32,000 bases of DNA. Origin: an uncultured Rhodospira sp. GTDB lineage: Bacteria; Pseudomonadota; Alphaproteobacteria; Rhodospirillales; Rhodospirillaceae. The translations under genes were made by a program, and so were the position numbers. Shown one piece after another: positions 2,464-27,249 of this stretch. The notes under the pieces were generated by a model. That model was not told where the DNA came from, made no database searches, and saw only the letters and a list, made by a program, of their open reading frames with translations. Location: NCBI RefSeq assembly GCF_937138205.1, contig NZ_CAKZOT010000028.1, positions 1 to 32,000 of the forward strand, in the 5' to 3' direction. Numbering within the stretch: the stretch's first letter is position 1; the number at the start of each line of letters is the position of its first letter.

Positions 2464-2656
2464 CGGAGTTTCTTGTTAGCCAAGTCTATTCCGCTCATCG
2501 GTCACGGCCCGGAAAACCGCCGAACTCCGCCCTATCTGCCCTAGAACTGATGCTCAAGCGTGCAATCCGGCGACGATGGTGCGAAGATTCGTCCGCGCAG
2601 ACGAGGCGCCGCACCCCGAATGCGAGGGAGGCGTCAGGTCAAGGGGGACGCCGGAC

Positions 2657-5476
2657 ATGATCAACCGCTTTTTCAGAGGCCTGTACAGGGCGGGTCTGCA
2701 CGGAACCAGTCTGTATTGGGCCGTGGTGATTGGCATGGGCATCTCGGCTGCCGTGCTGAGCGTGGCCGGTTGGATGGAAGTTCTGGACAAGACAGAAACG
2801 GCATTGACGCCCAGCGCGCTGCTCGATGGTGCCATCGGTACGGTGCAGATTTTCACGGGCAGCGCGCCAACCATGCCGGAATGCCAGCCCGGCAATCCGG
2901 ACTGCGCCATGGATTCGGTCCCCCTATCGCTTCGTCTCGCCCAACTTCTGGCGCCCCTGGCTGCGGCCGGCGCCGTTCTGAGGATTGGGGCCGAAGTGCT
3001 GTCCAACCAACTGGCCGCCTTTCGCATTGCAGGGATGCACGGTCACACCGTCATTTGCGGCCATGGCGACAGTGCGCGCGCCTTCGCCCGCTCGGAACAT
3101 AACGCCGGCCGGCACGTGATCATGGTGGACACCTCCGCCGGGGAAGACAATGCGGACGCCGACTTGCGCCGCCTCGGGATTGAGTTAAAGGCGGGCGACC
3201 CGCTCGATCCAGACGTCTTGCACAAGGTGGGCGTGCCTGGGGCTCGATGTTTGATCATCGCCCCGGGGGACGACAATCGCGCCCTCGACATCACCGGCCG
3301 AGCGCGGGAGGTCTGCGCGGCGACCCGCGAGGGTCCAGACAACGCCCTCCTCACCCGCTTCGAGATTTCGAACCGTCGCCTGTGGCGCCCCCTGTCGCGC
3401 TTTCACGGCCTGGCGCCCGCGCGAGAGGGCAAGACTGTTGGCGGGCGGGAGCAGGAGGCCATGGACCCGCTGCCGTTCAACATGGCCGCGCTGGCGGCGC
3501 GCGCCGTGATCTGGGGCCAGCGGCTGGAGGCCCAGGCGCTGCTGCGCGACCAGGACCGGCTGCACGTCGTGCTGATCGGCTACGACGACTTCACCGAAGC
3601 GCTGATCGGCCACCTGCCGCCGGCGGTGGCTCACCCGGCGCTCAAGACCCCGGTGATCAGCATCCTTGCGTCCGACCCGGCAGCGGCCAAGGAGCGCCTG
3701 ACGGAATCCTTCCCCGAACTGATGAAGACTCCGGACGACAGCGGAAAGGACCTTGCTGTCCGCGACATGGAACGGCGCCTCGGCCCCGTCGCCGACGTGC
3801 GGATCGACACGTTCCGCGCCGACCTGGAGCGATTGAGCGGCGCGATCATGGAGACCATCGTCGAGCGGGCACCGGTTACCACCGTGTTCGTCAGCCAGGA
3901 GAGCGATGCCGCCAGCCTGCGCACGGCCATGATCGTGCAAGACCGGATGCGCCAGGAGAACCTTTGGCATTCCCCTGTTCTTGTTCGGCTGTCGCGCTGC
4001 AAGGGCATGAACAATTTCCTGACCCAATCGCGGAAAACCAAACGGTTCGGCGAGGTTCTTCAGGCTTTCGGGGTTGAGGAGCAGTTGTGCAGTTTGTCCG
4101 TTCTGACGGGCCCTATGGAAACGCTGGCCGAGGCAATCCACGAGAAGTACGCGGAACAGAGGCGCGAGAAAAAAGAAGCGGACTCGCAAGGTGGAGTAGC
4201 ACCCACGCAGAGTGCCAGGCCGGTATCCGAGTGGGCAAGACTGCCGGAAACCTGGCGGGATTCGAACCGCCGGGCGGCCGACCACATCTTCGCCAAGCTG
4301 ACGGCGGCGGGGTGCCATGTCCCCAGCGATTTGATTTCAGCGTCCCAGTCCGAAGACAAACCGGTGCTGCCTGTTCCGCCCGGTTTCGACCTGCTCCCGA
4401 GAGACACGGACGCGGATCGAAAACGCCGCGACCGTCTGGCCGAACTGGAGCACGCATCTTGGATCGCCGGGCGCCGACTGGACGGCTGGCAGTACAACGC
4501 GAAGCGCGATGACGACCGACAGTGGCATCCCAGTCTCATTCCTTACGACGACCTTGGCGAAGACCTCAAGGCGTACGACCTGGACCAAGTTGACCTGTTG
4601 CAAATAGAACTCGGGCGTACGGGGAGAGGCTCGGGCGCGGACCAGGACACGCGCGAAGCACGAAAAGGATTGCTGACGGAAGCATCAAAGGCGGATCAGG
4701 ACGGCCTGATCCGCCATGACCTGTGGATCGGTCTGATCGGCAAGCTCTATATCACAACGGACGAGGGGTGTTGGCTGGCGGCGGATGACGAGGCGGACCC
4801 GAATGGCGGCGCCCCCAAGACCTTCAAGGCCAAACTGCGGCGCAGTCTGGCGGACCACCCCGAGGCGTTCGTGTCCCTGGTGACCCCACTTGCCCCGGGC
4901 GCCGACGTGGCCATGACACGGGCGGCCCAGGAGGTTCTGAGCGATCTCGGGCGCGCGTATCGTCTCTTGGTGCTTGAGGCCGTGCCCGAGGACATCCTTC
5001 TCGACGATTATGTCCGAAAAATCGAAGGATCAACGGACGCTTTCGACGGGTTCGACACGGTGCCGCAGGACCCCGGCGAAAGCTGGCGTGCTGACCACAA
5101 AGCGAACCGCGAACACATTCTGAACGAAGAGACAACCGAATGGATCATCGACCTGCGCGAGCCCACGCCACGCTCGTGCGAGCGGTGCGACACTCCGGAC
5201 ACACCCTACCAGAGGGCCGCCTACTACATCGCCGAACGCGCCCATATCCTGTTCGCGGCCGACAGATTGAGCGAAGCAAAGGGAACACCCGCGCCGGGCG
5301 GCGTCTCCGATACGCTGGCCAAACGCGACGCCTTCACCGAAGACGGGAAATGGCTGTCGGGCTGCACACTGTTCGCGTTGTCCCCGTTCACACGCGACCG
5401 CGTGGTTCTCGACCTCGATGATCTCTCCAGAGGCACCCGCAAGCAGGATTCACTGCCGGGCGAGGACACCCCGTGA
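2657..5476 (+). CDS. Membrane protein: 2 TM helices + two TrkA-N/RCK-like Rossmann modules + RyR (ryanodine-receptor repeat)-like domain + uncharacterised C-terminal domain
   Basis: ATG at 2657 with AAGGGGGA ~9 nt upstream. Hydrophobic helices are SLYWAVVIGMGISAAVLSVAGWM and LAQLLAPLAAAGAVLRIGA. Rossmann-like strands are HTVICGHGDSARAFA...HVIMVD and HVVLIGYDDFTEALIG. The RyR-type motifs are LAEAIHEKYAEQRR...WARLPETWRDSNRRAADHIFAKL and ELEHASWIAGRRLDGWQYNAKRDDDRQWHPSLIPYDDLGEDLKAYDLDQV (nt ~4120-4590). The C-terminal ~250 aa has ...FVSLVTPLAPGADVAMTRAAQEVLSDLGRAYRLLVLEAVP..., which is of unknown type. The stop overlaps the next gene's start (GTGA). Confidence 0.8.
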   Translation: MINRFFRGLYRAGLHGTSLYWAVVIGMGISAAVLSVAGWMEVLDKTETALTPSALLDGAIGTVQIFTGSAPTMPECQPGNPDCAMDSVPLSLRLAQLLAPLAAAGAVLRIGAEVLSNQLAAFRIAGMHGHTVICGHGDSARAFARSEHNAGRHVIMVDTSAGEDNADADLRRLGIELKAGDPLDPDVLHKVGVPGARCLIIAPGDDNRALDITGRAREVCAATREGPDNALLTRFEISNRRLWRPLSRFHGLAPAREGKTVGGREQEAMDPLPFNMAALAARAVIWGQRLEAQALLRDQDRLHVVLIGYDDFTEALIGHLPPAVAHPALKTPVISILASDPAAAKERLTESFPELMKTPDDSGKDLAVRDMERRLGPVADVRIDTFRADLERLSGAIMETIVERAPVTTVFVSQESDAASLRTAMIVQDRMRQENLWHSPVLVRLSRCKGMNNFLTQSRKTKRFGEVLQAFGVEEQLCSLSVLTGPMETLAEAIHEKYAEQRREKKEADSQGGVAPTQSARPVSEWARLPETWRDSNRRAADHIFAKLTAAGCHVPSDLISASQSEDKPVLPVPPGFDLLPRDTDADRKRRDRLAELEHASWIAGRRLDGWQYNAKRDDDRQWHPSLIPYDDLGEDLKAYDLDQVDLLQIELGRTGRGSGADQDTREARKGLLTEASKADQDGLIRHDLWIGLIGKLYITTDEGCWLAADDEADPNGGAPKTFKAKLRRSLADHPEAFVSLVTPLAPGADVAMTRAAQEVLSDLGRAYRLLVLEAVPEDILLDDYVRKIEGSTDAFDGFDTVPQDPGESWRADHKANREHILNEETTEWIIDLREPTPRSCERCDTPDTPYQRAAYYIAERAHILFAADRLSEAKGTPAPGGVSDTLAKRDAFTEDGKWLSGCTLFALSPFTRDRVVLDLDDLSRGTRKQDSLPGEDTP

Positions 5477-6684
5477 CGTCCCTTCCTCAAGCCCCGACCC
5501 GTGACGAACACCTGTTCTCGCCGGGACCGAAACGAATGCTGGCGCTCGACGGTGGCGGCGTGCGGGGGATCATCTCGGTCGCCTTCCTGGAGCGGCTGGA
5601 GGCCCTGCTGGCTCGGCGCCATCCCGATCCGGAGACGTTCAGACTCTGCGACTACTTCGACCTCATCGGCGGCACCTCCACCGGCGCCATCATCGCCGCG
5701 GGCCTCGCCCTGGGGATGAAGGTCGCGGAAATCCGGCGGTTCTACCTTGACCTCGCGCCCCGGGTCTTCCGTCAGGGCTGGTTCCGCATCGTCGGCGTGC
5801 AGCCGCTGTTCGACGCGCGCCGCCTGACGGAGGAGATTTCCCGCCAGGTCGGGGACCGCGCGCTCGACAGCCCGGACCTGCGCACCGGCCTGGTCATCGT
5901 CACCAAGCGGATGGACACGGGAAGCCCATGGATCCTGAGCAACGTGCCGGGAACGGCCTATTGGGACACGCCGAGCGACGGGGCGTTCCTGGGGAACCGC
6001 CATTACCGGCTCGCCAATCTGCTGCGTGCGAGTACGGCGGCCCCCTACTACTTCCAGCCTGAGCCGATCCCGGTGATCGACGGCCAGCCCCCGGGTTGGT
6101 TCGTGGACGGCGGCGTCTCGCCCTACAACAATCCCGCGCTGGCGCTGCTGCAAGTCGCGACGCTGCGCGCGCATGGCTTGCGGTGGAAGACGGGAGAGGA
6201 CAATCTCCTCCTGATGTCCATCGGCACCGGCTGTCAACGCACACGCGTGCCGCCCGACAAGGTCGGCCGCCTGTCCTCGGTCGGCTTGGCGGTGCGTGCC
6301 CTGGGCGCGGTCATCGAGGATGGGCAGGCCCTGGCGGTTGCCTTGCTGCAGGCGCTGTCGCGGCCGATCGACCCCTGGCACATCAACTCCGAGATCGGGG
6401 GCCTGGAGGACGACTGTCTCGGCGGGCAGCCCTTGCTGTCCTTCCAACGGTTCGACGTGCGTTTCGATCCCGGCTGGATCGCCACGCACACCGGCCTGAC
6501 GGTTTCGGACCGGGACCTCGAAGGCCTTGAACGGTTCGACTACCCGCCGATCGTTCCCTTGGCCGACCGCATCGGACGGGCCGCCGCCGCGCGGCTGGTC
6601 AGGGAGGACCATTTTCCCCCGGCGTTCGACACGCCGGCGACGGTCCGTCCGGCCACCGCCGACCCGCCGCCACCCCAGCGGTAG
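5473..6684 (+). CDS. Patatin-like phospholipase
   Basis: All three patatin motifs are present: the oxyanion hole LALDGGGVRGII, the nucleophile elbow IGGTSTGAIIA (GxSxG) and the catalytic Asp in FVDGGVSPYNNP (DGG). GTG start at 5473 with GAGGA 6 nt upstream, overlapping the upstream TGA by 4 nt. Confidence 0.9.
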   Translation: MTSLPQAPTRDEHLFSPGPKRMLALDGGGVRGIISVAFLERLEALLARRHPDPETFRLCDYFDLIGGTSTGAIIAAGLALGMKVAEIRRFYLDLAPRVFRQGWFRIVGVQPLFDARRLTEEISRQVGDRALDSPDLRTGLVIVTKRMDTGSPWILSNVPGTAYWDTPSDGAFLGNRHYRLANLLRASTAAPYYFQPEPIPVIDGQPPGWFVDGGVSPYNNPALALLQVATLRAHGLRWKTGEDNLLLMSIGTGCQRTRVPPDKVGRLSSVGLAVRALGAVIEDGQALAVALLQALSRPIDPWHINSEIGGLEDDCLGGQPLLSFQRFDVRFDPGWIATHTGLTVSDRDLEGLERFDYPPIVPLADRIGRAAAARLVREDHFPPAFDTPATVRPATADPPPPQR

Positions 6685-9794: not shown

Positions 9795-9840
9795 CGTCAA
9801 ACTCCCTGAGTCGTCTGTCATCGCCGGCGTGTGACGGGGG

Positions 9841-9880
9841 CTCCACTGGGAACTCCACTGGGAACTCCACTGGGGGCTCC
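9841..9880. repeat. 12-bp tandem repeat (ctccactgggaa x3 plus a partial copy) in the intergenic spacer
   Basis: ctccactgggaa ctccactgggaa ctccactggggg ctcc, read directly at 9841-9880. It lies between the stop of the SH3 lipoprotein gene (9984) and the start of the WD40-caspase gene. Confidence 0.75.
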
Positions 9881-9983
9881 GCCAGCCCTTCTCGTTCGGA
9901 TCACGTCACCCGCGCACGGTCCCGGTCCCCGCTTCGGAACCGGTTCCGCGCAAACGGTTGCAAAGCCGAGGCCCCAAGGGGCA

Positions 9984-11048: not shown

Positions 11049-11076
11049 AAAAGATGCCTCCGCTGAAAGCCCAGGA

Positions 11077-12465: not shown

Positions 12466-12537
12466 GTCTTCGTCCCTTTCTCCAATCGGTGGCTGACTGG
12501 CACTGGGCCCGGATCACCCTCCGCCCGCACGCGCCGT

Positions 12538-14943: not shown

Positions 14944-16604
14944 TGCGGGGCCCCTTGTGCGCAGGTGTACAAGGCGAACAATCCCAACCGATAGGACGCC
15001 GATCGCAATCGCTCTTCCATCCTGTCCGGCACATCAAGCGCACGCGTCGTGCCGTCCAGGCCACGCAACGCTTCGACCATGTCGGGCAATGGGCGATCCG
15101 TGGCGAGGCCGACCAGCAGATCGGCCCCGTAGGGGCGGCCGACCAGGATATCCTCCAGGATAAACGGCTCGGCCGGATCGCGCGGCCCGGCTTCCACCGC
15201 ATCGAGAGGGTAAAGGAACTGGACGGTGCCGTCGTTGGCCAGATTGACGAGCGTCAAGTAAGGGTACGTGAGGTCGTCCATGATCAGCGTCACCAGTTCC
15301 CCGTCGGCGTAGGTCGGCTTCGGGGGCGACGCCGCGATTGTCAAGGGGGCCATTTCGGCCAGCGCGGCGAACCGCAGATGGGCGCGAGCCTTGCTCACAA
15401 CGCCCTGCAATGCGTCGGCGTCGATGTCCTCGGCGACCACCGTATCAATGCCACTGATCACATCGCCGGTCGCCGGATCCCAGACGATGTCCGGCGTCTC
15501 GGTTACCGCGACGACCTGAACGCCCTCCAGTGGCGGCAGCCTCGCGGCGACCTCTCCGTGCACGGCCAGCCGGATGGGCCGATCGGGCATGGGAGCGGGC
15601 GAGGAGTGAGCGCCAGCGGCCGGTGACAAGTCCGCGTGCCAGTTCTCGTCACTGGCGACGATGCTGGGAATCTGCTGGCCCTGCGTTGCGGTCCTGATGT
15701 TCCGGATGATGTAGTCCTTGAACTCATCGAACCTGAGCACGCCGTCCCGGTCGGCATCCGCCGCGCCGCGCAGGCCCCGGGCGAAGTAGTAGCTCAGGGC
15801 GCCGCGCGGCACCGCCTGTCCGGACTCGTCGGGCAAGGCGATCTCCGGCGCGAGGCTGTCATCCAGCACGGCGGAAAACGAAAACAGGTTGTCGGCGATC
15901 GTCTCCTCGGCGCCCCCTGAGTCCACGTCCAATCCCTCGAACAGCATCGACTCATCGAGGTCCGCCATAAGGTCGCCCTCGACCTTGACGTTCGAGAATC
16001 GGTAGCGCGGTCGCACGCGCCGGTCGACGGCGCGGAAGGTCGTTCCCGAGTGGCAGGCGTCGACGACAAGGGCGACGGTGACGCCCTTGTCGCCAGCCTT
16101 GTCAACAAACGCGCCGATCTCGTCATCCAGGATGAAATCCTGGCGCCCGGGTCCGCGCCGTTCGAAGGCGTGCAGGGCCAGGAACTCGTCGTAGCCGTCC
16201 GCTTCTTCGCTATCGACGGCGGCGACGCGCTGCATTCCGTGGCCGGCATACGTCAGCAACAGCAGGTCACCGGGGTGCGCGCGCGCCAGGGCGCGATCCC
16301 ATGCCCCCACAACGGCCCCCCGGGTCGCCTGGTCGTCGAGAAGCACCGACAGATCCGTGATGCCCAGCGTTCGCAGCGTCTCGGCGATATCCCGCGCGTC
16401 ATTGACCGCGCCGCTCAGGTCCGAGAGGATGCCTTCCGGGTCGCGGTAGTCGTCGATGCCAACCACCACCGCCCGCCACTCGCCGGCCTGCGCTTGCGCG
16501 AGAGCCGGATCGGACACCATGCCCAGCAGCGCCGCGCCGGCAAGACTGCCGGCCAACAGCGCGGACGCCACGGGTCGGCACACTCTATTGGGCACAGACA
16601 CCAT
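14937..16604 (-). CDS. Exported caspase-like (C14) protein with EF-hand-like loop and DUF4384-like C-terminal domain
   Basis: I favour the ATG at 16604 (GAGGA 6 nt upstream); the track start is a GTG at 16625. Signal peptide: VASALLAGSLAGAALLGMVSDPALA/QA. The caspase part has AVVVGIDDY, LLLTYAGHGMQ (His) and LVVDACHSGT (Cys). The Ca-binding-like loop is DADRDGVLRFDEFKDYI. The 3' end overlaps the next gene's ATG by 7 nt (14937-14943). Confidence 0.85.
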   Translation of the reverse strand: MVSVPNRVCRPVASALLAGSLAGAALLGMVSDPALAQAQAGEWRAVVVGIDDYRDPEGILSDLSGAVNDARDIAETLRTLGITDLSVLLDDQATRGAVVGAWDRALARAHPGDLLLLTYAGHGMQRVAAVDSEEADGYDEFLALHAFERRGPGRQDFILDDEIGAFVDKAGDKGVTVALVVDACHSGTTFRAVDRRVRPRYRFSNVKVEGDLMADLDESMLFEGLDVDSGGAEETIADNLFSFSAVLDDSLAPEIALPDESGQAVPRGALSYYFARGLRGAADADRDGVLRFDEFKDYIIRNIRTATQGQQIPSIVASDENWHADLSPAAGAHSSPAPMPDRPIRLAVHGEVAARLPPLEGVQVVAVTETPDIVWDPATGDVISGIDTVVAEDIDADALQGVVSKARAHLRFAALAEMAPLTIAASPPKPTYADGELVTLIMDDLTYPYLTLVNLANDGTVQFLYPLDAVEAGPRDPAEPFILEDILVGRPYGADLLVGLATDRPLPDMVEALRGLDGTTRALDVPDRMEERLRSASYRLGLFALYTCAQGAPQC

Positions 16605-17577
16605 AGCGCTCCTCGGATACGCCACCCTGGCCGTAGAACACCTCGACCCTGCGGTTGATTTGCCAGCGCTCCTCCTGAGTGTATCCGCCCGGATTGCTCA
16701 GCCGCACAGGCACCCGTTCGCCGCACCACCGCACCCGCACGGATCCCGGGAAGCCGTTGGCCTGAAGATAATCCTTGAGGCGGAGCGCGCGCCGCTTTGA
16801 CAGCTCCAGGTTGTGGATATCCGATCCTCGATCGTCGGTGTGGCCGATCACAGTGACGGAATGGGGCGTTTCCTTGCGCAGGATCGGCAACAGCCGCTCG
16901 GCCGAAACCTGGCCACGGGGATCGAACTCGGCCTTGTTTGTGACAAACGTGATTTGCGGCGTCTTTTTCGGAACGGCGATGCCCCGAACGGTCGGCGCGA
17001 AGTAAGGCGTCGGCGCGCCGCCGCGGGTCGTGGGCTCCACCGGAATGGAACTGAGGGACAGCGCCTCCGATGCCGCGTCGTGCACCGCCAGGATCGTCTC
17101 CTGGTCGGGCGGCGTGCGGGTGAAGCGCGTATCGTCAATCAGTTCGAGGGCTTTGAAGTACTGCTCGGTGGCGTCGCTGAACCGTTTCCGGGACATGGCG
17201 AGTTCGCCGAGCAGACGCCGCAATTCCCAATGATCCCCGTACGCGAGAAAGGCCTCGGCGTCCGCGATGACGCCGGAAACGTCCTCGCCCTTTTCGAGCC
17301 TGAGCCGAGCAAGTCGTGCCGCCAACAGGCCAAGGTTCGACCGCGCATCGATCCGGTTCTGCGGCGGGCAATAGAGGTCGATGTCCTCGATCAGACCGCT
17401 GGCTGTCGTGATATCAGCCTGCTTGAGCGCGGCGACAAATTCTTTCAGCGCACTGCGACAAGAGTCGGCACCGCCCGGCGTCGCACTGGCAGGCCCCGGA
17501 CTTAAAAACAAAAACAAACCGACGCACAGAACCGCGCACCGTACATGCTTTGATAAACGGTCTTCCTCGTCCAACAC
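16585..17577 (-). CDS. Exported helical (TPR-like) protein with OmpA-family peptidoglycan-binding C-terminal domain
   Basis: OmpA_C pattern: ITFVTNKAEFDPRGQVSAERLLPIL...VTVIGHTDDRGSDIHNLELSKRRALRLKDYL. Signal peptide: KHVRCAVLCVGLFLFLSPGPASA/T. I favour the GTG at 17577 (GGAGGGGGG just upstream); the track start at 17673 would add 32 non-signal residues. The 3' end overlaps the next gene by 20 nt. Confidence 0.8.
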   Translation of the reverse strand: MLDEEDRLSKHVRCAVLCVGLFLFLSPGPASATPGGADSCRSALKEFVAALKQADITTASGLIEDIDLYCPPQNRIDARSNLGLLAARLARLRLEKGEDVSGVIADAEAFLAYGDHWELRRLLGELAMSRKRFSDATEQYFKALELIDDTRFTRTPPDQETILAVHDAASEALSLSSIPVEPTTRGGAPTPYFAPTVRGIAVPKKTPQITFVTNKAEFDPRGQVSAERLLPILRKETPHSVTVIGHTDDRGSDIHNLELSKRRALRLKDYLQANGFPGSVRVRWCGERVPVRLSNPGGYTQEERWQINRRVEVFYGQGGVSEERYGVCAQ

Positions 17578-17968
17578 TAGCCCCCCTCCAATACAAAGAA
17601 AGCGTTCGACGATCGGAATGCCAATACGATCAAAGGGAAATATCGTTTCTTTGTCCCCGAACCCATGAACCATAGGGAGGCGTATTTAAATATTGCATTT
17701 TGTGGTGTTTATCCTATTATAGATTTTCTGTCAAGGGGCACGGAACAGATTCGTCGGCAAGGTGCTGTTGAATGGTATTGCCGCGAGGCGGCACCCGGGC
17801 TCGGCCTTTCAATCGTCAGTCCGTCGCCCCGCGGCGACGGAAGGTGAACGGTGAAACCAGCAGTCGACAATTGAATACGGCGCCGATTCTCGTGCCTGGG
17901 GACGTGACTCCCCGAATTGGCCGGCAAAGCATTTAGGCGATTCCGATTTGATCTTGTTGGAGGGGGCA
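17578..17968. promoter_or_regulatory. Divergent intergenic control region with a strongly AT-rich patch
   Basis: The ~390-bp spacer lies between the minus-strand six-gene operon and the plus-strand STAND gene. The 17680-17740 stretch (gtatttaaatattgcattttgtggtgtttatcctattatagattttctg) is far more AT-rich than the rest of the window. A perfect 8-bp hairpin, ccgtcgcc-ccgc-ggcgacgg, sits at 17821-17840. Promoters are inferred, not mapped. Confidence 0.4.
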
Positions 17969-20900
17969 GTGGGTGACGTCCGGGTCTTCATTTCATCCCC
18001 AGGGGATGCACAGGCGGAACGCGCCCGCATTGAGAGGGCAATCGATCGACTAAACGGCCTGATAGGGGGCTCCGTCCGCCTCAAGGCGATCCGTTGGGAA
18101 TCGGGCTACTACACGGCGGCCAGCACCTTCCAGACCCAGATTCCGGAAGCGGCGGAGTGCGACATCGTCCTGGCGGTTCTGCGCCACCGACTGGGGACGC
18201 CGCTGCCCGAGGACTTCAAGCGGATGTCGGACGGCGCGCCATATCCCAGCGGGACCGCCTACGAGATCCTCTCGGCGGTCCACACCAGCCAGCACAAAGG
18301 GACCCCCGACGTCTACGTGTTCCGCTACGCGCACCCACCCCAGGTGGGCAATATCGACGACACCGCGGCGCTGACCCAGACCCGGGAGGACTGGGAACGC
18401 CTGAAGGGGTTCTTCCAGTCCTGGTTCGAGACGGATACCGGTCAGTTCAAGGCTGCCTTCCATCGATATGACAGCGTCGACGTGTTGGAAGGTCAGGTGG
18501 AGGATCTCCTCCAAACCTGGGTCGAAGACCATCTGAACACGGGCCAGCTGGTCGAGTGGCCGATCCACCTCAAGGGCTCGCCTTTTCGAGGCCTTGCCGC
18601 GTTCGGCGCCCGGCACGCCGCCGTCTTCTTCGGTCGCCGGCGTGAAACCCTGCGCGCCGCCGAGGCGCTCAAGGATGCGGCGGACCGGGGCACACCGGCG
18701 CTCCTGCTGGTCGGCCCAAGTGGTTCCGGAAAATCCTCCCTGGCGCGCGCTGGACTGATCCCGCATCTGACCGCGCCGGGCGCGGTCTCGGACGTCGACC
18801 TGTGGCGGGTGGCCAGCCTCTGTCCGGGTGAACATCCCGACGGGCCCGTTGCGGCCCTGGCCGCGCGCCTGTTCACGGCCGAGCGGGATATGGAGCCGGA
18901 CGATGAGGGCTGGCCGCGCGCCCTGCCGGAACTTGCCCACGGCGACTTCGCGACCCCGGACGCCCTTGCGGCGTTGCTCGCCGGCACGAACACCACTGCG
19001 GCAACAGGCCCCATCCTGGCCGCATTGGACCGCGTGGCAGAGGAAACCCGGCGCACGGAAGCGTTCGACAGGCCGGTCACCGTCCGCCTCTTGCTCCTCG
19101 TGGACCAGTTCGAGCAGCTTTTCGCCGACGCCGTGGATCAGGCAGACAGAACCGCGTTCACAACCCTGCTGCGGGCGCTTGTGGAGACGCGACGCGTCTG
19201 GGTGATCGGCACGCTGCGAGCCGACTACTATGAAGCCTTCATTGCCGACCCCAACCTGCTGCCCCTGAAGCGCGACGGCGCCCACGTCGATCTCCGTCCG
19301 CCCGGCATGGACGCGATGGCCGAGATCATCCGCGCCCCGGCACGGGCGGCCGCCCTCGTCTACGAGGTCGATGCCAAGGGTACCGGTCTCGACGAGCGGA
19401 TTCTGGCCGAGGCCGATCGGCCCGACATGCTGCCCCTGGTCCAGTTCACGCTGAACCGGCTGTTCGAGGTCCGGAGCGAGGCGAGCGGCGAAATCCGGCT
19501 GACCCATGCCGCCTACGACGCCATGGGGGGGCTTGACGGGGCCATCAATCAGGAAGCCGACCGGGCCATCGCCAATCTCGGCGAGGCGGACCGGAAAACC
19601 TTGCCGCGCCTGCTCCGCCTGATGGTCGTGCCAGCCACCAACGCGGGCTCGGCCAGCGAGGCCTCGCGCCGCATGGCCGTGCGGCCGATCCCCTGGCGCA
19701 CGGCCACGGGCGACCCGGCGCAACGCCGGCTCGTGGAGGCCTTGATCGAAGCGCGTATTCTGTATCTGTCCGGAAGCGGCCCAAAGGCGCACGTTCAGCT
19801 CGCGCACCAGCGCGTCCTGGAAAGCTGGGCGCTCGCACGCAAGATCGTCGCCGACAACGTGGACTTCTTCCGCATCCGCCAGGATGTGGAGGACGCCCGC
19901 GTCCGCTGGCAGACCAGCAACCGCCCCCGCGACCGCCTGATCCCCCCAGGCGTCGCGCTGGCCGAGGCGGAATCCCTCGCCGCCCGGTTCCAGGATGAGT
20001 TGACCGAGGACACGCGCGGCTTCATCCGCGCTTCGGGCCGGCGGGCGCGGCGGCGCCAGAGGCTCACCACCATGGCCGCGGCGGTCTTCGCGGGCGTCGC
20101 GGTGCTCGCCGCTTGGTCGTACATGCAGGCGGAAACCGCCCGGAATGAGGCGGCCGGCAACTACCAGATCGCCCTGAATGTGGTCGACGGCCTCGCCCTG
20201 GACATCATCGAGGGCCTGCAAACCAACTGGAGCGTCCCCGTCGAGGAGAAGCTTTACGTCGCCGACAGGATCGAGGGAAATCTCGGCGACCTCGTGGCGG
20301 AGGTTGAAGACGACCAGGTACTGAGGTTGCGGTACGCGGATGTCCTGGCGTCGACCGCATACATGCTTGCCCTCGTCGGTCATCACCGCGCGGCGGAAGA
20401 CAGCGCGCAAAACGCCGCCCGACAATTGGCGACGATCGATCCGGACACCATCGACACACGCGGCTGGGACAAGGCCCGGCCGGCGGCGTTGACCCAGGCC
20501 CGGGTGAACGTCGCTTTGGCCTTGGGACGATGGCAGGCCTTCGATCAAGCCGCCGTGGAGCGCCATCTCCGCAGCGCAGAGGACAGCCTGGCCCGCCTGT
20601 CCGCCTCGGAGACGGAGGTCACGGCTTCCGACGTTGCAGAGCTCAGGGCATGGATGGACGATCTTCGGATCACCCTGATGATCGCCAGACGCGACACCCT
20701 GGCCTACCAGGAAGAGCATATGGCGGCGGTGGAGCGCCGCCGGGCCGACCTCGAACGGGCCCGCGACAATGGCGACACCCGCGCGGCACGCCTCATCGCC
20801 TTCCACCTTGCCAAGCTCGCCGTGGGCGATGCCGCCTTCGCGGCGGGAACCGGAGCGCGCGACTTCGAGGACCGGCACAAACGCGCGTCGGAGATTTCGG

Positions 20901-23209
20901 CGGAAGTGGCCTCGGTTTTCGTCGAGCCATCGGATCCGGCCCTCGTCTATATCGAGGCCAGCATGGACCTGACCCGGGCGGCGAACCTCGCCGAACGGGG
21001 TGGACAGGACGCCACAGCGTTGGCGACCCGCGCCATCCAGCGCTTGTTCGGCCTTGTCCAGCAGGATTTCCTGAACCTGGAATGGCGGCACATCCTGACC
21101 CACGCGCTGGGCCGGCGGGCACAGTGGGCGTCGGCGCATTCCAACGCGACCCTGTCGTTGGGCGACGCCCTGGCCGCGCGCCAGATCGCCCTGTCCAGTC
21201 TCAGGGACGGGGGTCTGACCCGCGATGTGTTCGCGACCGCGAACTGGGCGGACTACGTCACCGGCGCGCATCGCGCGGTGGGCAGCCAGGATGCCCGCGC
21301 CGCCTTCGCCCGCATTACCACGCGTGTCGACGGTTTGGCGGCCGACGGCGTGGACGATCCCGCCTTGGCGCGGTTCAAGTTCCTCGCGAAACAGGGGCTG
21401 GCGCGCCACCTGTTGAAACGGGCCGAGGCCGGACCCGCGCGAGCCGACGATGCGTCGAGGCGCCGTCTCCTGCTGGAGGCGAAGGAAGCGGCCATGGCCG
21501 CTCTCGACACCCTGCCAGACCGGCCGCCGGCCGACGGGACCGCCAGCTTGCCGACGGAGATCGACCGGCACGCCGCACTCACTGATTTGGTGCGAATCGC
21601 CGAACAAATGACGGAGACGCGCCTGCTTGACCAGGCGCTCGACGACGCCCTGCGGCAAAACGCAGTGCTGTTGTCCCTGACCGGCGGGGGCGCGGTTTGG
21701 CATCAGGACCGGGGCGCTTTGCGTGCGCGCCTGGCGGATACGCGCGCCGAACAGGACCGGTGGCAGGAGGCTGGGGAGGCCTATGCAAGGGCGGCGCGCG
21801 ATTTCGCCAAGGCAATGGCCGCGGACGCCCCGACGGCGGCGCGGCTGCAGAACCTCTTGGCCTATGCCCAACGCGCGCTCAAAGCCCAGGCCAAGACAGG
21901 GGACTGGGCAGCCGCCAAGGCCCTGTTTGCCGAGGTCACGGAGATTTTGGACGGATTGGACACGCTTCCCGGCGATCCAAGGACCCGTTTCGACTCTTGG
22001 ATCGCGTTGACCGAGGCCCTTGAAACAGCGGCGCCCTCTCCCTCCGCGTTTCAAGACACGATTGTCGATCTCCAGTCCCAGGCGGACCGCGTCACGACGC
22101 GCCTGCAGCGTCCGCCCACCGAGACGGACCCGGCGCACGGAAATCGAGCGCACGCCATCGATTTCCGCCCGTTGGACCTGCCAACCGCCGCCGGATCGAG
22201 CGCACAGGCCGGCGTCCCGGACGGCTCCATCGGCTGGGAGGCGCCGCCTCTCATGTCCGGGCCATGGACCACGCTGGTTGGCGCGGACTTCGAGACAGCC
22301 GTCGGCCATCTCAAGGCCATGCAGCATCATGTGCCTGGAGAGAACCGCCGGCAATACATCCGCATTCGGACCTTGCGTCTCCCGTTCTACCAGGACGCCC
22401 GGGTTCTCGAAGCTGAGTATCCGGGACCGGATGGTCGCATCCTGTCCCTGGGGGCTTTGCGGGCGAAAGGCGTCACCCGTCTTCTGGACGGCACGGAACT
22501 GTACATTGTTGCCGCCAACAGCAGCGGCCTGGAGATCGATACCCACTCGCTGGCGGCTGGGTACCTTAAGTTCCGACAAGCCTACACGGCCCCGCACGGC
22601 AGCGGACCGCCCGACCGCATTGTCGAGAGCCTGGCCGATCTACACCTGCAGCCGGGCGTCGATCCGAGCACGCGGGAGCGGATCGGGGCCTTGATCCGCC
22701 CTCTGGCGGTCTGGCGCGATCCGGATGCGCCCGGGGGATGGCGGGCCACGGCGGCCGTTCTGCGGGGCAACACACTGCTCCACGCGGCATTTCGTCTCGA
22801 TCAAGCGGGCACCGTCACCATGACCGAGCATCGGGTCGTGGCCTCGGGGCTGCTTGTCCGCCGGCGCTGGTTCAGCACGGACGGTTCGCTGGTGACCGAC
22901 AGACCGCACGGTCTCGACGTTCGCGCGCTCGATCTTCCGGACGTCCAGGCGGAACCGCGCATTTTGTTGCGCTTGGCGGAGGGCAATGACGCGGCGACAT
23001 CGCTCGGCGCGGTCACGCTCATCGACATGGCGATGGCACACGCCAAGCTGGCCACGGAGCACGGGGAGATGACCCAGGCCGCCTATGCGGGCGAATTGGC
23101 GCGGGCCGCCCGCACCCTGCGAGACCAGGATCGCCCGCAGGTGGCTGAACGCTATGAACGGGAGTTGAGGGCCCTCTCGGCGTCGACCTCCGGCGAACAG
23201 GCTGAATAA
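17969..23209 (+). CDS. Giant DUF4062 (TIR-like) - STAND P-loop NTPase - single TM helix - long helical region - unknown C-terminal domain protein
   Basis: GTG at 17969, 5 nt after GGAGG; the track start is a TTG at 17948. The N-terminus VRVFISSPGDAQAERARIERAI...ECDIVLAVLRHRLGT...PSGTAYEILSA matches the DUF4062/TIR-like pattern (FISSxxxDxxxER...CDhhhhhhGxRYG...SxTExEY). The STAND entry motif is PFRGLAAFGARHAAVFFGRRRE. Walker A is LLLVGPSGSGKSSLARAGL (nt 18713-18739) and Walker B is LLLLVDQFEQLF. A sensor/WH region has LPLVQFTLNRLFE. A basic cluster plus hydrophobic helix, RRARRRQRLTTMAAAVFAGVAVLAAWSYM, lies at nt ~20063-20122. About 680 aa of Ala/Leu/Arg-rich helical sequence follow, then a ~350-aa domain with no motif I recognise. 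Confidence 0.85.
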   Translation: MGDVRVFISSPGDAQAERARIERAIDRLNGLIGGSVRLKAIRWESGYYTAASTFQTQIPEAAECDIVLAVLRHRLGTPLPEDFKRMSDGAPYPSGTAYEILSAVHTSQHKGTPDVYVFRYAHPPQVGNIDDTAALTQTREDWERLKGFFQSWFETDTGQFKAAFHRYDSVDVLEGQVEDLLQTWVEDHLNTGQLVEWPIHLKGSPFRGLAAFGARHAAVFFGRRRETLRAAEALKDAADRGTPALLLVGPSGSGKSSLARAGLIPHLTAPGAVSDVDLWRVASLCPGEHPDGPVAALAARLFTAERDMEPDDEGWPRALPELAHGDFATPDALAALLAGTNTTAATGPILAALDRVAEETRRTEAFDRPVTVRLLLLVDQFEQLFADAVDQADRTAFTTLLRALVETRRVWVIGTLRADYYEAFIADPNLLPLKRDGAHVDLRPPGMDAMAEIIRAPARAAALVYEVDAKGTGLDERILAEADRPDMLPLVQFTLNRLFEVRSEASGEIRLTHAAYDAMGGLDGAINQEADRAIANLGEADRKTLPRLLRLMVVPATNAGSASEASRRMAVRPIPWRTATGDPAQRRLVEALIEARILYLSGSGPKAHVQLAHQRVLESWALARKIVADNVDFFRIRQDVEDARVRWQTSNRPRDRLIPPGVALAEAESLAARFQDELTEDTRGFIRASGRRARRRQRLTTMAAAVFAGVAVLAAWSYMQAETARNEAAGNYQIALNVVDGLALDIIEGLQTNWSVPVEEKLYVADRIEGNLGDLVAEVEDDQVLRLRYADVLASTAYMLALVGHHRAAEDSAQNAARQLATIDPDTIDTRGWDKARPAALTQARVNVALALGRWQAFDQAAVERHLRSAEDSLARLSASETEVTASDVAELRAWMDDLRITLMIARRDTLAYQEEHMAAVERRRADLERARDNGDTRAARLIAFHLAKLAVGDAAFAAGTGARDFEDRHKRASEISAEVASVFVEPSDPALVYIEASMDLTRAANLAERGGQDATALATRAIQRLFGLVQQDFLNLEWRHILTHALGRRAQWASAHSNATLSLGDALAARQIALSSLRDGGLTRDVFATANWADYVTGAHRAVGSQDARAAFARITTRVDGLAADGVDDPALARFKFLAKQGLARHLLKRAEAGPARADDASRRRLLLEAKEAAMAALDTLPDRPPADGTASLPTEIDRHAALTDLVRIAEQMTETRLLDQALDDALRQNAVLLSLTGGGAVWHQDRGALRARLADTRAEQDRWQEAGEAYARAARDFAKAMAADAPTAARLQNLLAYAQRALKAQAKTGDWAAAKALFAEVTEILDGLDTLPGDPRTRFDSWIALTEALETAAPSPSAFQDTIVDLQSQADRVTTRLQRPPTETDPAHGNRAHAIDFRPLDLPTAAGSSAQAGVPDGSIGWEAPPLMSGPWTTLVGADFETAVGHLKAMQHHVPGENRRQYIRIRTLRLPFYQDARVLEAEYPGPDGRILSLGALRAKGVTRLLDGTELYIVAANSSGLEIDTHSLAAGYLKFRQAYTAPHGSGPPDRIVESLADLHLQPGVDPSTRERIGALIRPLAVWRDPDAPGGWRATAAVLRGNTLLHAAFRLDQAGTVTMTEHRVVASGLLVRRRWFSTDGSLVTDRPHGLDVRALDLPDVQAEPRILLRLAEGNDAATSLGAVTLIDMAMAHAKLATEHGEMTQAAYAGELARAARTLRDQDRPQVAERYERELRALSASTSGEQAE

Positions 23210-23299: not shown

Positions 23300-23860
23300 G
23301 TGGGGCGCCGTCACGCCCATGGCGTCCTGGAGACCGCCGTCATCCTTTCCGACGATGCCGGGCAGTTCAATGTCGGCGAGCACGCGTCGTGCTGGGTCCA
23401 CGCCGAGCGGCTGGTTCACAAGCTCGACACCTTCACCGAGGCGGCCCGCCACGCCAAGGAAACGGTTCGGTCCCTGATCTGGCGGTTCTACACCGACCTG
23501 AAGGCCTACCGCGCCGCGCCCATGCCGCGCCGCAAGGCCGAACTGAAGGCCCGGTTCGCGCGCATCTTCAGGCGCCGAACCGGGTTCGTCACCCTGGGTC
23601 GCCTGCTGGCCCGACTGCGGGCCAACAGGGACGAACTCCTGCGCGTCCTGGATCGGCCGGAGATCCCGCTGCACACCAACGGCTCGGAAAACGACATCCG
23701 CTGCCATGTGACCCGCCGCAAGGTCAGCGCCACCACCCACAGCGACCACGGGCGAGACTGCCGTGACGCCTTCCTCGGCCTGAACAAGACCTGCCGCAAG
23801 CTCGGCGTCTCGTTCTGGGATGACCTCCACACGCGACTGGGATCCGATACGCTACGGACC
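23300..23860 (+). pseudogene. 5'-truncated DDE transposase fragment (IS66-like C-terminal half)
   Basis: ...VILSDDAGQFNVGEHASCWVHAERLVHKL...EIPLHTNGSENDIRCHVTRRKVSATTHSDHGRDCRDAFLGLNKTCRKLGVSFWDDLHTRLG follows the IS66-type C-terminal layout (sDgyxxY...CWaHxrR...; xNxxExxIRxxxxxRKxxxxxxSxxG...TCKxxGvxxxxYL). The N-terminal half, including the first catalytic Asp region, is missing. The reading frame then runs on without similarity into the convergent GT2 gene. The exact family is uncertain. Confidence 0.55.
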
Positions 23861-23931
23861 GCAGCCGGGCGCGGGTGTCGGGCGCCGAGGCCATGCGCCG
23901 CACGCACCGGACAGCGGCCCACGCCGACGGG

Positions 23932-24861
23932 CTATTTTCCGCCCGACCGGATCAACGCCCGGGCCGCATCCCACACGCCGCGCGGCTCCGCCGTCAGCAT
24001 CCCCGGCCACTCCATCACGGCCTGCGCCAGCATCCCCAGCGCCAGGCTGCGCGGCGCGCCGGCGCGGCGTTTGGCCACGGCCAGGGCGCGGCGGTGACGG
24101 GCGCGCGCCTTGTCCCGTCCGGTCGACGCGGCCGGATCGAGCGCGGCCGCGCGCTGCCACAGCCGGTCCCACGCGCCTATGGACGGCAGCGGCAGCGCCG
24201 CGGTCATCACCGGCGCCTCAGGCGGGAGAGACGCCTGCCCCAGCCTGAACACGGACCGCGGGCTGGCCTTCAGCGCACGTAGAATCCAGTCCTCGATCAT
24301 CGTTTCCGGCTGGGTCTCGTCGAAGCCGCCGACCATCTCCCACGCGGTCCGGGTCATCGCCAGCGGCGCCCCGTGTGTGGCGGCGATTCCGTCCATCAAC
24401 GCCGCCGGGGTCAGCGGGGCGACCGCCTCGTCGCCCGGATCGTGCCCGACCATCGCCGCCACGGTATCCGTCCGCCGCTCCAGAAGGTCCCAGCGCGTGC
24501 TCGCGATCGCCGGGGGAACGCAGGTTCCCGGCACGACGAAGGCCAGCACCGCGCCGCGCGCCAGCGTCGCGCCGGCGTTCAGGGCGGTGGTGACGGTCAG
24601 GCCCTCCGCGTGGTGCGGCCGCACGGTCGGGTCAAGGCGGACAAAGTCCCGGATGACCGCGCTGCACGCCGGCCCGAGGCCCGTATCGACGACGATCACC
24701 TCGTGCGACGGCCTGGTGATGGCCAGCATCGAGGTCAGCGTCTCGCGCAAGGCGCCGGGATCGGCCGAGCCCGCCACAATGAGGGAGACGACCGGTGTGT
24801 CGGGACCGGGTCCTCCGGGACCGCTTCCCGGATCGCCGAACAGTGGAAAGGGCATGTGCAT
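23932..24861 (-). CDS. Family 2 glycosyltransferase
   Basis: VSLIVAGSADPGALRETLTSMLAITRPSHEVIVVDTGLGPACSAVIRDF...ALNAGATLARGAVLAFVVPG is the GT-A fold N-terminal pattern (hhhPxxN.....L..sL.....eIIVVDdgS....; NxGxxxAxGxhhhFLDxD degenerated to VVPG). I favour the ATG at 24861 (GAGGAG 7 nt upstream); the track start at 25053 adds 64 implausible residues. Confidence 0.75.
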   Translation of the reverse strand: MHMPFPLFGDPGSGPGGPGPDTPVVSLIVAGSADPGALRETLTSMLAITRPSHEVIVVDTGLGPACSAVIRDFVRLDPTVRPHHAEGLTVTTALNAGATLARGAVLAFVVPGTCVPPAIASTRWDLLERRTDTVAAMVGHDPGDEAVAPLTPAALMDGIAATHGAPLAMTRTAWEMVGGFDETQPETMIEDWILRALKASPRSVFRLGQASLPPEAPVMTAALPLPSIGAWDRLWQRAAALDPAASTGRDKARARHRRALAVAKRRAGAPRSLALGMLAQAVMEWPGMLTAEPRGVWDAARALIRSGGK

Positions 24862-27226: not shown

Positions 27227-27249
27227 GATCCAGTTGGTGAGTGTGGGCG

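Follow-up and report, generated by a model that had tools for sequence, protein, structure and literature searches.

The gene at positions 17969 to 23209 of the window (the whole stretch of 32,000 nucleotides that was analysed) encodes a protein in which a complete nSTAND1 NTPase is followed by a conserved arginine cluster and hydrophobic helix, and we consider it probable that the product is a single-pass inner-membrane NLR-like receptor, N-in/C-out, with a TIR-like domain and the nSTAND1 module inside and NADase output reached via clustering. The cytoplasmic side of such a receptor would be a DUF4062-type TIR-like domain (aa 1-198, with Glu99) fused to the nSTAND1 ATPase (aa 205-654), the membrane would be met by the arginine cluster and then the 23-residue uncharged helix (aa 691-721), and the periplasmic side (predicted, ~1025 aa) would hold a TPR-like alpha-solenoid, an alpha+beta domain of ~240 aa and a short helical tail. 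In the mechanism proposed as likely, the periplasmic region would bind a ligand and the receptors would cluster, ATP-dependent oligomerisation of the nSTAND1 modules would take place on the cytoplasmic face, and the TIR-like domains thus brought together would switch on NAD+ hydrolysis, which may lead to growth arrest or cell death, or may generate a signal derived from NAD to which accessory effectors respond, such as the patatin and the TrkA_N/RyR protein of the neighbourhood. The gene and the parts of its product are as follows, each with the evidence for it in brackets.

17969..23209, plus strand, stop included: whole gene, DUF4062 / nSTAND1 / TM / helical / new-domain protein (ORF list, translation)
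17969..18562, plus strand: DUF4062-type (TIR-like) N-terminal domain, predicted effector, aa 1-198 (Pfam, PADLOC, AF2)
18248..18265, plus strand: SGTAYE motif, aa 94-99 (sequence)
18263-18265, plus strand: codon of E99, candidate for the catalytic glutamate, which the model places at the N-terminus of helix aa 95-110 (AF2 model)
18581..19930, plus strand: nSTAND1 NTPase module, aa 205-654 (Pfam PF20703, E 4.2e-80)
18713..18739, plus strand: Walker A, GPSGSGKSS, aa 249-257 (sequence)
19088..19114, plus strand: Walker B strand, LLLLVDQFE, aa 374-382 (sequence)
20039..20062, plus strand: juxtamembrane arginine cluster, RRARRRQR, aa 691-698 (sequence)
20063..20131, plus strand: predicted single transmembrane helix, LTTMAAAVFAGVAVLAAWSYMQA, aa 699-721 (hydrophobicity, conservation)
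20132..22183, plus strand: Ala/Leu/Arg-rich helical (TPR-like) region, predicted periplasmic scaffold or sensor, aa 722-1405 (composition)
22184..22903, plus strand: uncharacterised ~240-aa alpha+beta C-terminal domain, aa 1406-1645 (clusters, local HMM, AF2)
22904..23206, plus strand: C-terminal helical tail, aa 1646-1746 (sequence)

The reading frame is open from 17948, and its GTG start at 17969 lies 6 nt 3' of GGAGGGGG. The product of 1746 aa is identical in length and sequence (100%) to the database protein P0001, an 'nSTAND1 domain-containing NTPase' of an uncultured Rhodospira sp. An antisense ORF (1515 aa, 18050-22597, minus strand) was discarded as a high-GC artefact, since all homology sits on the plus-strand frame. 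The NCBIfam search of the protein returned no family, and the scan of the gene's flanks for promoters and terminators gave nothing above the shuffled expectation, bar one weak promoter-like site at the 3' end of the gene. The clade of this protein is a large, catalogued family with more than 1600 proteins from at least 133 species, mostly alphaproteobacterial. The preliminary description overrated its novelty, given a family of that size and the fact that TM-bearing bacterial NLR-like proteins had already been predicted in the literature.

The nSTAND1 module and the N-terminal domain

The match to nSTAND1 (PF20703) reaches 270.6 bits with a cut-off of 27.1 and covers profile positions 1-378 of 379, the motif PFRGLAAF stands at aa 205-212, and Walker A and Walker B are both intact when compared with GxxxxGK[ST] and hhhhD. 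The identification as a STAND NTPase, with which the preliminary description began, is therefore firm, and the motifs it quoted (VFISSPGD, SGTAYE, PFRGLAAF, GPSGSGKSS, LLLLVDQFE and RRARRRQR) were all found where it had placed them. The PADLOC search of the protein produced no match to Avs, bNACHT or any other validated defence system, only the candidate PDC-S60, whose N-terminus matches aa 4-145 (E 6.5e-7, weak), and Walker-A-level matches to mad8 and mad3.

The N-terminal domain carries VFISSPGD at aa 6-13 and ECDIVLAV at aa 63-70. Its Pfam match to DUF4062 (PF13271; aa 5-80), a model that spans just the first ~80 residues, falls just short of the cut-off of 24.7 with the isolated domain (24.6 bits) and reaches 20.4 bits with the full-length protein, and DUF4062 is the sole family matched in all 30 of the scanned clade members (Pfam; best E 1.8e-6). 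The AF2 model of the domain (pLDDT 82.6) has five strands and four helices in a flavodoxin-like arrangement, with a beta-alpha-beta order compatible with TIR. No variation is seen among 30 homologues at F7, S9, S10, E17, R18, W43, E44 and S94-G95-x-A97-Y98-E99. Two 2026 preprints (10.64898/2026.05.01.722283 and 10.64898/2026.06.25.731849) have shown for Swarozyc, TEP1 and Evangelion that DUF4062 acts as a TIR-like NADase, is activated by oligomerisation and has a catalytic Glu, which they place at E97 in KpSwz (Swarozyc) and at E87 in Eva01 (Evangelion). E99 may be the equivalent of these two residues, judging by its similar position and not by a residue alignment, and the N-terminal domain is predicted to be NAD-cleaving.

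Structure and profile comparisons were less specific. The top Foldseek matches of the N-domain model were generic three-layer alpha/beta (flavodoxin-like) folds, so no specific TIR call could be made from them, and a plant TIR (5ku7) appeared only at rank 35 (E 0.016, TM 0.40/0.46). Comparison of the N-domain profile with a small TIR_2 alignment in hhalign gave no signal (probability 0.5%), and the PDB sequence search with the same profile gave nothing meaningful. The TIR-like status of the domain is thus drawn from the Pfam match and the two 2026 preprints. The proposal of an N-terminal DUF4062/TIR-like domain is supported as to probable DUF4062 membership; the structural comparisons did not single out TIR. 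One relative, P0121, has a canonical TIR_2 domain in place of DUF4062 at exactly the same position ahead of the nSTAND1 module.

The hydrophobic helix and the C-terminal half

The segment aa 699-721 consists of 23 uncharged residues and contains the top Kyte-Doolittle 19-mer of the protein (KD19 1.79), with a Wimley-White octanol sum of -3.1 and a Hessa-2005 sum of +1.24 (versus +5.7 for the next-best segment); on these three scales it ranks first and far ahead of the runner-up. The charge asymmetry around it is pronounced, as 7 K/R are found in the 15 residues before the helix versus 1 in the 15 after, and the family means are 5.1 K+R and 0.44 D+E for the N-flank versus 3.2 K+R and 2.8 D+E for the C-flank, with SGrRARlRQR as the family consensus of the arginine cluster. 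The position of the helix (aa ~690-740) is kept in 120 of 120 database homologues irrespective of the type of C-terminus (TPR, WD40 or other), and the helix is also present in 67 of 69 independent GTDB genome loci, so the segment is not a chance feature. The homologues have one such helix per protein (any second segment above the threshold is in most cases a split of that helix or the Walker B strand), and the uncharged stretch has a median length of 24 aa. Residue identity in the helix is low while hydrophobicity is retained, as expected of a lipid-facing anchor. The hydrophobic helix after the arginine cluster and its positive-inside charge, both pointed out from the sequence beforehand, are therefore present, with a strong bias, unique in the protein and kept across the family.

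The helical region behind the helix (composition of aa 730-1300: A 20.7%, L 12.1%, R 10.5%) gave no repeat profile above threshold for TPR and no WD40; its TPR_12 match is sub-threshold (E 0.002, 18.7 bits versus a cut-off of 30.1), and TPR or WD40 is present in most relatives. The region aa 722-1405 shares homology with the helical parts of other nSTAND1 proteins and has 26-34% identity to P0002 and P0003. A sensor that is helical and neither WD40 nor canonical TPR had been proposed, and this agrees with the composition of aa 730-1300 and the sub-threshold profiles; a purely helical sensor does not agree with the last ~340 aa, which hold the alpha+beta domain.

This domain has the motifs W..PPL..G.W, R.R..L.FY, YLRFF-like, RPL and G.VEM, and its AF2 model is confident (pLDDT 91.4, pTM 0.88). 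No Pfam family matched it, Foldseek found no match in PDB or BFVD, and the PDB sequence searches with the C-terminal half and with the C-terminal-domain profile gave nothing meaningful. The word-indexed homologue search with the domain alone came back empty and missed even the query itself (a sensitivity limit of the tool), while the homologue search with the C-terminal-domain alignment returned 4 unannotated proteins. The domain forms a family of 149 clusters at 50% identity in a library of 1.8 billion representatives; it is an uncharacterised domain family with a confident predicted fold and no solved match. The helical tail shows little conservation, with 13-25% identity to P0002 and P0003. 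Compared with P0002, the C-terminal half is 25-37% identical and the N-terminal module ~60%, and the sensor region is fast-evolving.

Because the helix position is conserved, the positive-inside bias is strong and the segment is the most hydrophobic of the protein, a single pass with N-in/C-out is the best reading of the topology, as a prediction. An extracytoplasmic location of the ~1025-aa C-terminal part is likewise predicted, from hydrophobicity and charge rules only. The C-terminal domain family adds no independent support for export, since a signal peptide or TM helix precedes the domain in about 51 clusters, and neither is present in about 78. It seems unlikely that the protein is wholly cytoplasmic, with the Ala-rich helix serving as a buried or oligomerisation helix or as a peripheral tether and with an intracellular ligand, as in STANDs of the Avs, bNACHT or APAF-1 type, although several observations point that way. 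The hydrophobicity of the helix is marginal in the query, where it is Ala-rich and reaches only +1.24 on the Hessa scale, and weaker still in the closest relative, P0002 (KD 1.35, Hessa +3.7). The helical-plus-C-terminal module also occurs in TM-less nSTAND1 proteins (P0128, P0147 and P0127), and 46 stand-alone copies of the C-terminal domain are without any signal peptide, so the module can work in the cytoplasm. The even-number cysteine signature of export is absent from the post-TM regions (52 odd, 30 even, 37 zero). Canonical STAND auto-inhibition requires contact between the sensor and the nucleotide-binding oligomerisation module (NOD), characterised STAND sensors being cytoplasmic and touching the NOD, and a membrane between the two would prevent this contact, which counts against the preferred reading. 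Against a wholly cytoplasmic protein stands a charge-free stretch of 19-28 residues after 4-7 Arg/Lys in 120 of 120 homologues and 67 of 69 loci at low residue identity, with a Wimley-White sum below 0 in 120 of 120 and a Hessa sum of 0 or below in 76 of 120, while in a buried soluble helix one would expect the packing residues to be conserved and a few positions to be polar.

To our knowledge, all experimentally characterised STAND/NLR sensors, bacterial and eukaryotic, meet their ligand in the compartment of the NTPase and are held off by sensor-NOD contact. A clade with a TM helix always between NOD and sensor would require another activation logic, namely trans-membrane receptor clustering, and would extend NLR-type surveillance into the periplasm; through it, the recently established DUF4062 TIR-like NADases are also linked to the format of a membrane receptor. 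We would go further only tentatively, and with somewhat more doubt than belief, to a true transmembrane NLR, in which an extracytoplasmic sensor (TPR, WD40 or the new alpha+beta fold) signals via the single helix to a STAND engine that fires the TIR-like NADase, so that the periplasm is monitored. If this is true, TLR topology and NLR mechanics are combined in one polypeptide, and surveillance is directed at the periplasm, with phage entry machinery, bacteriocins and contact-dependent toxins as targets, and not at the cytoplasm.

Neighbouring genes and the possible output

Two genes of the window could encode accessory components of the receptor:

2576..5476, plus strand: TrkA_N + RyR-domain membrane protein, possible accessory component (inferred; Pfam)
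5473..6684, plus strand: patatin-like phospholipase, possible accessory effector (inferred; Pfam)

The patatin gene overlaps the preceding TrkA_N/RyR gene by 4 nt. With the same receptor architecture, the output may differ from the one preferred here, as the TIR-like domain could make an NAD-derived signalling nucleotide that activates separate membrane-directed effectors in a Thoeris-like logic (the patatin phospholipase, the TrkA_N/RyR membrane protein and a SLOG/SLATT-like protein with two TM segments, the last of these in relatives); we regard this as rather improbable. It is favoured by patatin orthologues (47-49%) and TrkA_N/RyR genes, both present in the window, that adjoin the genes of P0003, P0122, P0124 and P0125 (patatins of 47-49% identity beside P0003 and P0125, TrkA_N/RyR homologues beside related STAND genes in the loci L005, L007 and L008), and by partner proteins of 620-720 aa with weak SLATT_1, DUF4231, YpsA-SLOG and Nuc_deoxyrib_tr matches and 2+2 TM segments. 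Within 10 kb, a patatin gene is found in 8 of 80 family loci and a SLOG/SLATT-like gene in 6 of 80; however, this amounts to only about 15% of the family loci, the SLOG/SLATT assignments are under Pfam thresholds, and the patatin and TrkA_N/RyR genes of the window are 11 kb off, beyond an unrelated protease cluster.

This adjacent cluster is of the caspase/trypsin/serpin/OmpA type, and its six products all have signal-peptide-like N-termini. The STAND could be its cytoplasmic signalling arm, with the periplasmic region sensing the proteases or being cleaved by them, and the secreted character of the neighbours and the divergent arrangement kept beside P0002 (46% identity for the STAND, 56-68% for the neighbours) would suit such a role. 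However, OmpA-caspase-trypsin/caspase clusters (with or without serpin, SH3 and WD40-caspase) are present at 8 or more further metagenomic loci that lack a STAND gene within 10 kb, and caspase, serpin or OmpA neighbours are found in 0 of 80 family loci, so the adjacency is lineage-specific, probably inherited synteny. The functional link between the STAND and the secreted cluster was therefore rejected; a signalling arm of the proteases is largely refuted and very improbable, and the cluster is an independent module. The first scan of close relatives with the OmpA protein found nothing.

Comparison with known systems

The protein shares with the nSTAND1 clade (PF20703; Kaur, Iyer, Burroughs & Aravind, eLife 2021, PMC8195603) the full-length profile match with intact Walker A and B, the N-terminal effector, the C-terminal repeat or sensor and the conflict-system-like neighbourhoods. 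It differs in that the main text of PMC8195603 makes no mention of a TM helix directly after the NTPase, whereas here one is kept in the whole DUF4062-bearing clade, and in that the C-terminal domain is an uncharacterised fold and not WD40, TPR or FGS.

With the DUF4062 NADases (Swarozyc KpSwz, Evangelion Eva01 and, from eukaryotes, TEP1, NWD1, NWD2 and NPHP3) it has in common the N-terminal DUF4062 and an invariant Glu near residue 99, and in TEP1, NWD1 and NPHP3, too, DUF4062 directly precedes a STAND ATPase, with WD40 or TPR repeats behind it. For these NADases, oligomerisation was proposed or shown to be the activating step. Unlike the present protein, whose Pfam match is at threshold, they are soluble, with NACHT or no NTPase. 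A TM helix is described for none of them, and the two 2026 preprints do not contain the word 'transmembrane'.

The bNACHT and Avs antiphage STANDs follow the same tripartite logic of effector, NTPase and sensor, but they belong to a separate STAND clade, and PADLOC gave no Avs/bNACHT match here. Kibby et al. described a bacterial NACHT class with TM regions, 'likely recognising intra-membrane or periplasmic signals'; those proteins have multiple TM regions, sometimes within the NACHT, whereas here there is one helix between NOD and sensor. KAP NTPases, as far as the account of Aravind et al. 2004 cited in PMC8195603 goes, are likewise membrane-embedded STAND-related P-loop NTPases implicated in conflict systems, but their TM helices are inserted inside the NTPase domain, and here a single helix follows the complete nSTAND1 module.

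In Toll-like receptors and bacterial TIR-TM-repeat proteins, as predicted for the present protein, a TIR-type domain in the cytoplasm is combined with one TM helix and a repeat sensor outside the cytoplasm. Two of the bacterial proteins, P0123 and P0182, carry the same C-terminal domain behind TIR_2 and a TM helix, without any STAND, in a TLR-like layout. Compared with Toll-like receptors, the orientation is inverted (the TIR is N-terminal here) and an ATP-driven STAND is placed between TIR and membrane. The resemblance is one of analogy and not of sensor homology.

The gene and its N-terminal module

The STAND gene begins with GTG at 17969, with GGAGGGGG 6 nt upstream, in an open plus-strand frame spanning 17948-23209. 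Its 1746-aa product equals the window's own database protein (P0001) in length and sequence; the record is named "AAA family ATPase [uncultured Rhodospira sp.]" and, in UniRef, "nSTAND1 domain-containing NTPase". All motifs quoted in the preliminary description were found in the translated protein where it had placed them. The 1515-aa ORF running antisense to the gene (18050-22597, minus strand) is most likely an artefact of high GC, since G+C is 68% and all detected homology lies in the plus-strand frame. The nSTAND1 domain was matched by Pfam at aa 205-654 over nearly the whole profile (E 4.2e-80, 270.6 bits against a cut-off of 27.1).

Features of the STAND protein
aa 249-257: Walker A, GPSGSGKSS (from the sequence)
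aa 374-382: Walker B, LLLLVDQFE (from the sequence)
aa 699-721 (nt 20063-20131, plus strand): hydrophobic segment LTTMAAAVFAGVAVLAAWSYMQA, directly after RRARRRQR
aa 1406-1645 (window 22184-22903, plus strand): new alpha+beta domain of about 240 aa (from HMMER clusters and AlphaFold2)

The match of the N-terminal 200 aa to DUF4062 is borderline: with a cut-off of 24.7 bits, the domain taken alone scores 24.6 and the whole protein 20.4. DUF4062 was the sole family matched in 30 of 30 diverse clade members scanned; the PADLOC candidate PDC-S60 aligned to aa 4-145 (E 6.5e-7). In the 30-sequence alignment, F7, S9, S10, P11, D13, E17, R18, W43, E44 and S94-G95-x-A97-Y98-E99 are invariant. In the AlphaFold2 model of this domain (pLDDT 82.6, pTM 0.81), five strands are interleaved with four helices; the loop at aa 42-65, at the position expected of a TIR BB-loop, is modelled with low confidence, and E99 is at the N-terminus of the helix at aa 95-110. 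Two preprints from 2026 (10.64898/2026.05.01.722283 and 10.64898/2026.06.25.731849) identify DUF4062 as a TIR-like NADase whose catalytic residue is a Glu (KpSwz E97, Eva01 E87, TEP1 E1008), and point out that in human TEP1, NWD1, NWD2 and NPHP3 it stands directly ahead of a NACHT STAND module. Of the earlier proposal of a TIR-like DUF4062 domain, the family assignment held across the clade, but the TIR resemblance was not specific: Foldseek against the PDB returned generic flavodoxin-like folds, with plant TIR no higher than rank 35, and hhalign against four TIR_2 domains gave no signal. Since our own fold tests were unspecific, the label "TIR-like" rests on family membership and literature. 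In the related protein P0121, a canonical TIR_2 occupies the exact DUF4062 position, before the same nSTAND1 start motif.

The hydrophobic helix and the C-terminal half

The segment at aa 699-721 holds the top Kyte-Doolittle 19-mer of the protein (1.79), and both the Wimley-White octanol scale (-3.1) and the Hessa-2005 scale (+1.24, with the next-best segment at +5.7) reach their lowest values there. The top 19-mer keeps this position in 119 of the 120 best homologues, where it is preceded by a conserved SGrRARlRQR motif, independently of the type of C-terminus (TPR, WD40 or other), and when the search was confined to that region the segment was present in all 120, with an uncharged stretch of 19-28 residues (median 24). 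Mean charges in these 120 were 5.1 K+R and 0.44 D+E in the N-flank, and 3.2 K+R and 2.8 D+E in the C-flank. Each homologue has a single such segment, additional calls near aa 400 being the Walker B strand. An independent set of GTDB species representatives (133 species, nearly all of them Alphaproteobacteria) contained 69 ORFs that were long enough, and 67 of these have the segment at aa 683-793. Both the domain assignments and the features of this helix are established in this analysis.

As an alternative, the protein could be fully cytoplasmic with a helix that does not span the membrane; the window's helix is one of the least hydrophobic in the family, and that of the closest relative (P0002) is weaker still. 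Across the family, the segment varies widely in sequence but stays hydrophobic and keeps its flanking aromatic residues, which is the pattern of a lipid-facing anchor and not of a packed soluble helix, and we regard the cytoplasmic alternative as unlikely. An ATPase and an NAD-dependent domain both require the cytoplasm, and the protein has no N-terminal signal peptide; therefore the helix, if spanning, would give an N-in/C-out topology.

The preliminary description had the sensor as helical, with neither WD40 nor canonical TPR. This is correct for aa 722-1405, which form helices rich in Ala, Leu and Arg with only a sub-threshold TPR_12 match, but the alpha+beta domain beyond them was missed. 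An exhaustive HMMER search with aa 721-1746 against 1.84 billion representatives gave 149 clusters (at 50% identity), and because most of them align only to query positions ~700-915, a separate domain was delimited at aa ~1406-1645. Its motifs are W..PPL..G.W, R.R..L.FY, LDG.S..IH..N, YLRFF, F.IVE, RPL, W.A.A.V.YG..LF.A.F and G.VEM..D.P. AlphaFold2 with a 39-sequence alignment predicted a confident alpha+beta fold (pLDDT 91.4, pTM 0.88) resembling two helix-plus-sheet halves. Nothing matched in Pfam, in the PDB by sequence or in BFVD, and the best PDB hit by fold (E 0.035, TM <0.22) was counted as unmatched. The domain occurs stand-alone, in tandem copies and fused to Sel1/TPR, ankyrin, TIR_2 or nSTAND1. 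Since it is missing from all 80 GTDB family loci, the window's protein is a rare sensor variant of its clade. Identity to P0002 is 60-75% in the N-terminal module (DUF4062, nSTAND1, linker and TM) against 25-37% in the C-terminal parts, as would be expected of a fast-evolving sensor.

Independent evidence that the C-terminal half lies outside was sought in domain contexts and cysteine counts, and none was decisive. When the 149 clusters were sorted by context, the domain stood at the very start without a signal peptide in 46, behind a long TM-less N-terminal region in 32 (including the TM-less nSTAND1 proteins P0128, P0147 and P0127, and ankyrin fusions), behind an N-terminal signal peptide or anchor in 17, and behind exactly one internal TM in 34. 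Because clusters were found both with and without a signal peptide or TM, the domain evidently functions on either side of the membrane. Among 119 homologues, post-TM cysteine content was low (0.20% vs 0.36% in N-terminal parts), and even counts were not favoured (52 odd, 30 even, 37 zero). On the supporting side for an exported C-terminal half we count a TIR-TM-sensor layout, which recurs, since P0123 and P0182 have TIR_2, then an Arg cluster and one TM helix, then Sel1 repeats and/or the new domain, without a STAND module, and the TIR_2 protein adjoining P0122 has RRRRGRR and a hydrophobic segment. A STAND-less protein at 8157-9785 of locus L005 likewise has a TIR_2 N-terminus, an Arg cluster with a single TM helix, and Sel1 and/or the new domain.

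Neighbouring genes

Genes upstream of the STAND gene
2576-5476, plus: TrkA_N/RyR-domain membrane protein
5473-6684, plus: patatin-like phospholipase (4-nt overlap with the TrkA_N/RyR gene)
6699-9821, minus: WD40+caspase, 1040 aa
9984-11165, minus: SH3 lipoprotein-like protein
11077-12465, minus: serpin
12538-14943, minus: trypsin+caspase+DUF4384
14937-16625, minus: caspase
16585-17673, minus: OmpA-domain protein

The six minus-strand genes (6699-17673) lie divergently upstream of the STAND gene, and as all their products have signal-peptide-like N-termini, they appear to form a secreted, periplasmic caspase/trypsin/serpin module. Coupling of the STAND protein to this cluster is largely refuted and we consider it very improbable: the same block adjoins the P0002 gene, but at least eight other metagenomic loci have it while lacking any STAND within 10 kb. 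It is kept as a block in loci L001 and L091, and in part in at least seven further metagenomic loci, independently of STAND genes. It is found without a STAND and is missing from all 80 family loci, so it was treated as an independent module and rejected as support for a periplasmic STAND function. The divergent intergenic region (17674-17968) is 295 bp, with a counterpart of 313 bp in L001; G+C dips around it (0.586 in bin 17001-18000 vs ~0.67 nearby), and no sigma-70-like promoter was detected in it.

Homologues of the patatin and/or TrkA_N/RyR genes, paired or single, directly adjoin related STANDs in loci L002, L005, L007 and L008. A gene for a 620-720-aa partner adjoins STAND relatives at L002 6153-8021, L003 13615-15528, L005 14998-17160 and L008 11293-13278; its product combines a soluble N-terminal domain, which has the motif GV.GHR and weakly matches YpsA-SLOG and Nuc_deoxyrib_tr, with 2+2 TM segments that weakly match SLATT_1 and DUF4231, an arrangement that suggests a nucleotide-sensing membrane effector. 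This gene is absent from the window, where a truncated IS66-family transposase ORF (23300-24097, plus strand; profile positions 148-281 of 284 only), immediately downstream of the STAND gene, occupies the position of the partner genes in relatives and may have been left behind by an insertion or deletion. Of the 80 GTDB family loci, 8 have a patatin within 10 kb and 6 have a SLOG/SLATT-like gene there; the association is recurrent, yet confined to a minority. It is possible, if rather unlikely, that the output is signalling through patatin, TrkA_N/RyR or SLOG-SLATT partners, not NAD+ depletion, which is compatible with the receptor model below. Farther downstream (27241-29605, plus strand), a DUF2336 protein and a PAS+LuxR (GerE) regulator have no evident tie to the STAND gene.

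Mechanism and comparison with known systems

The best-supported reading, which we hold to be fairly probable, is an N-in/C-out single-pass receptor that is clustered by ligand, oligomerises through nSTAND1 and hydrolyses NAD+. A periplasmic ligand would cluster the ectodomains, the nSTAND1 modules would then oligomerise, and the TIR-like domains, brought close, would be activated to hydrolyse NAD+; we infer the topology, enzymatic activity, ligand and output in this scheme. In searchable literature we found no description of a conserved single TM helix between the nucleotide-binding oligomerisation module and the sensor across the DUF4062-nSTAND1 clade, nor of the C-terminal domain (aa ~1406-1645). 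Bacterial NLR-like proteins with TM were predicted earlier in general terms (Kibby et al.). The window's protein belongs to the nSTAND1 family, and its layout parallels the DUF4062-STAND-repeat order of TEP1, NWD1 and NPHP3. P0123, P0182 and the L005 8157-9785 protein are TLR-like in layout and lack the STAND module.
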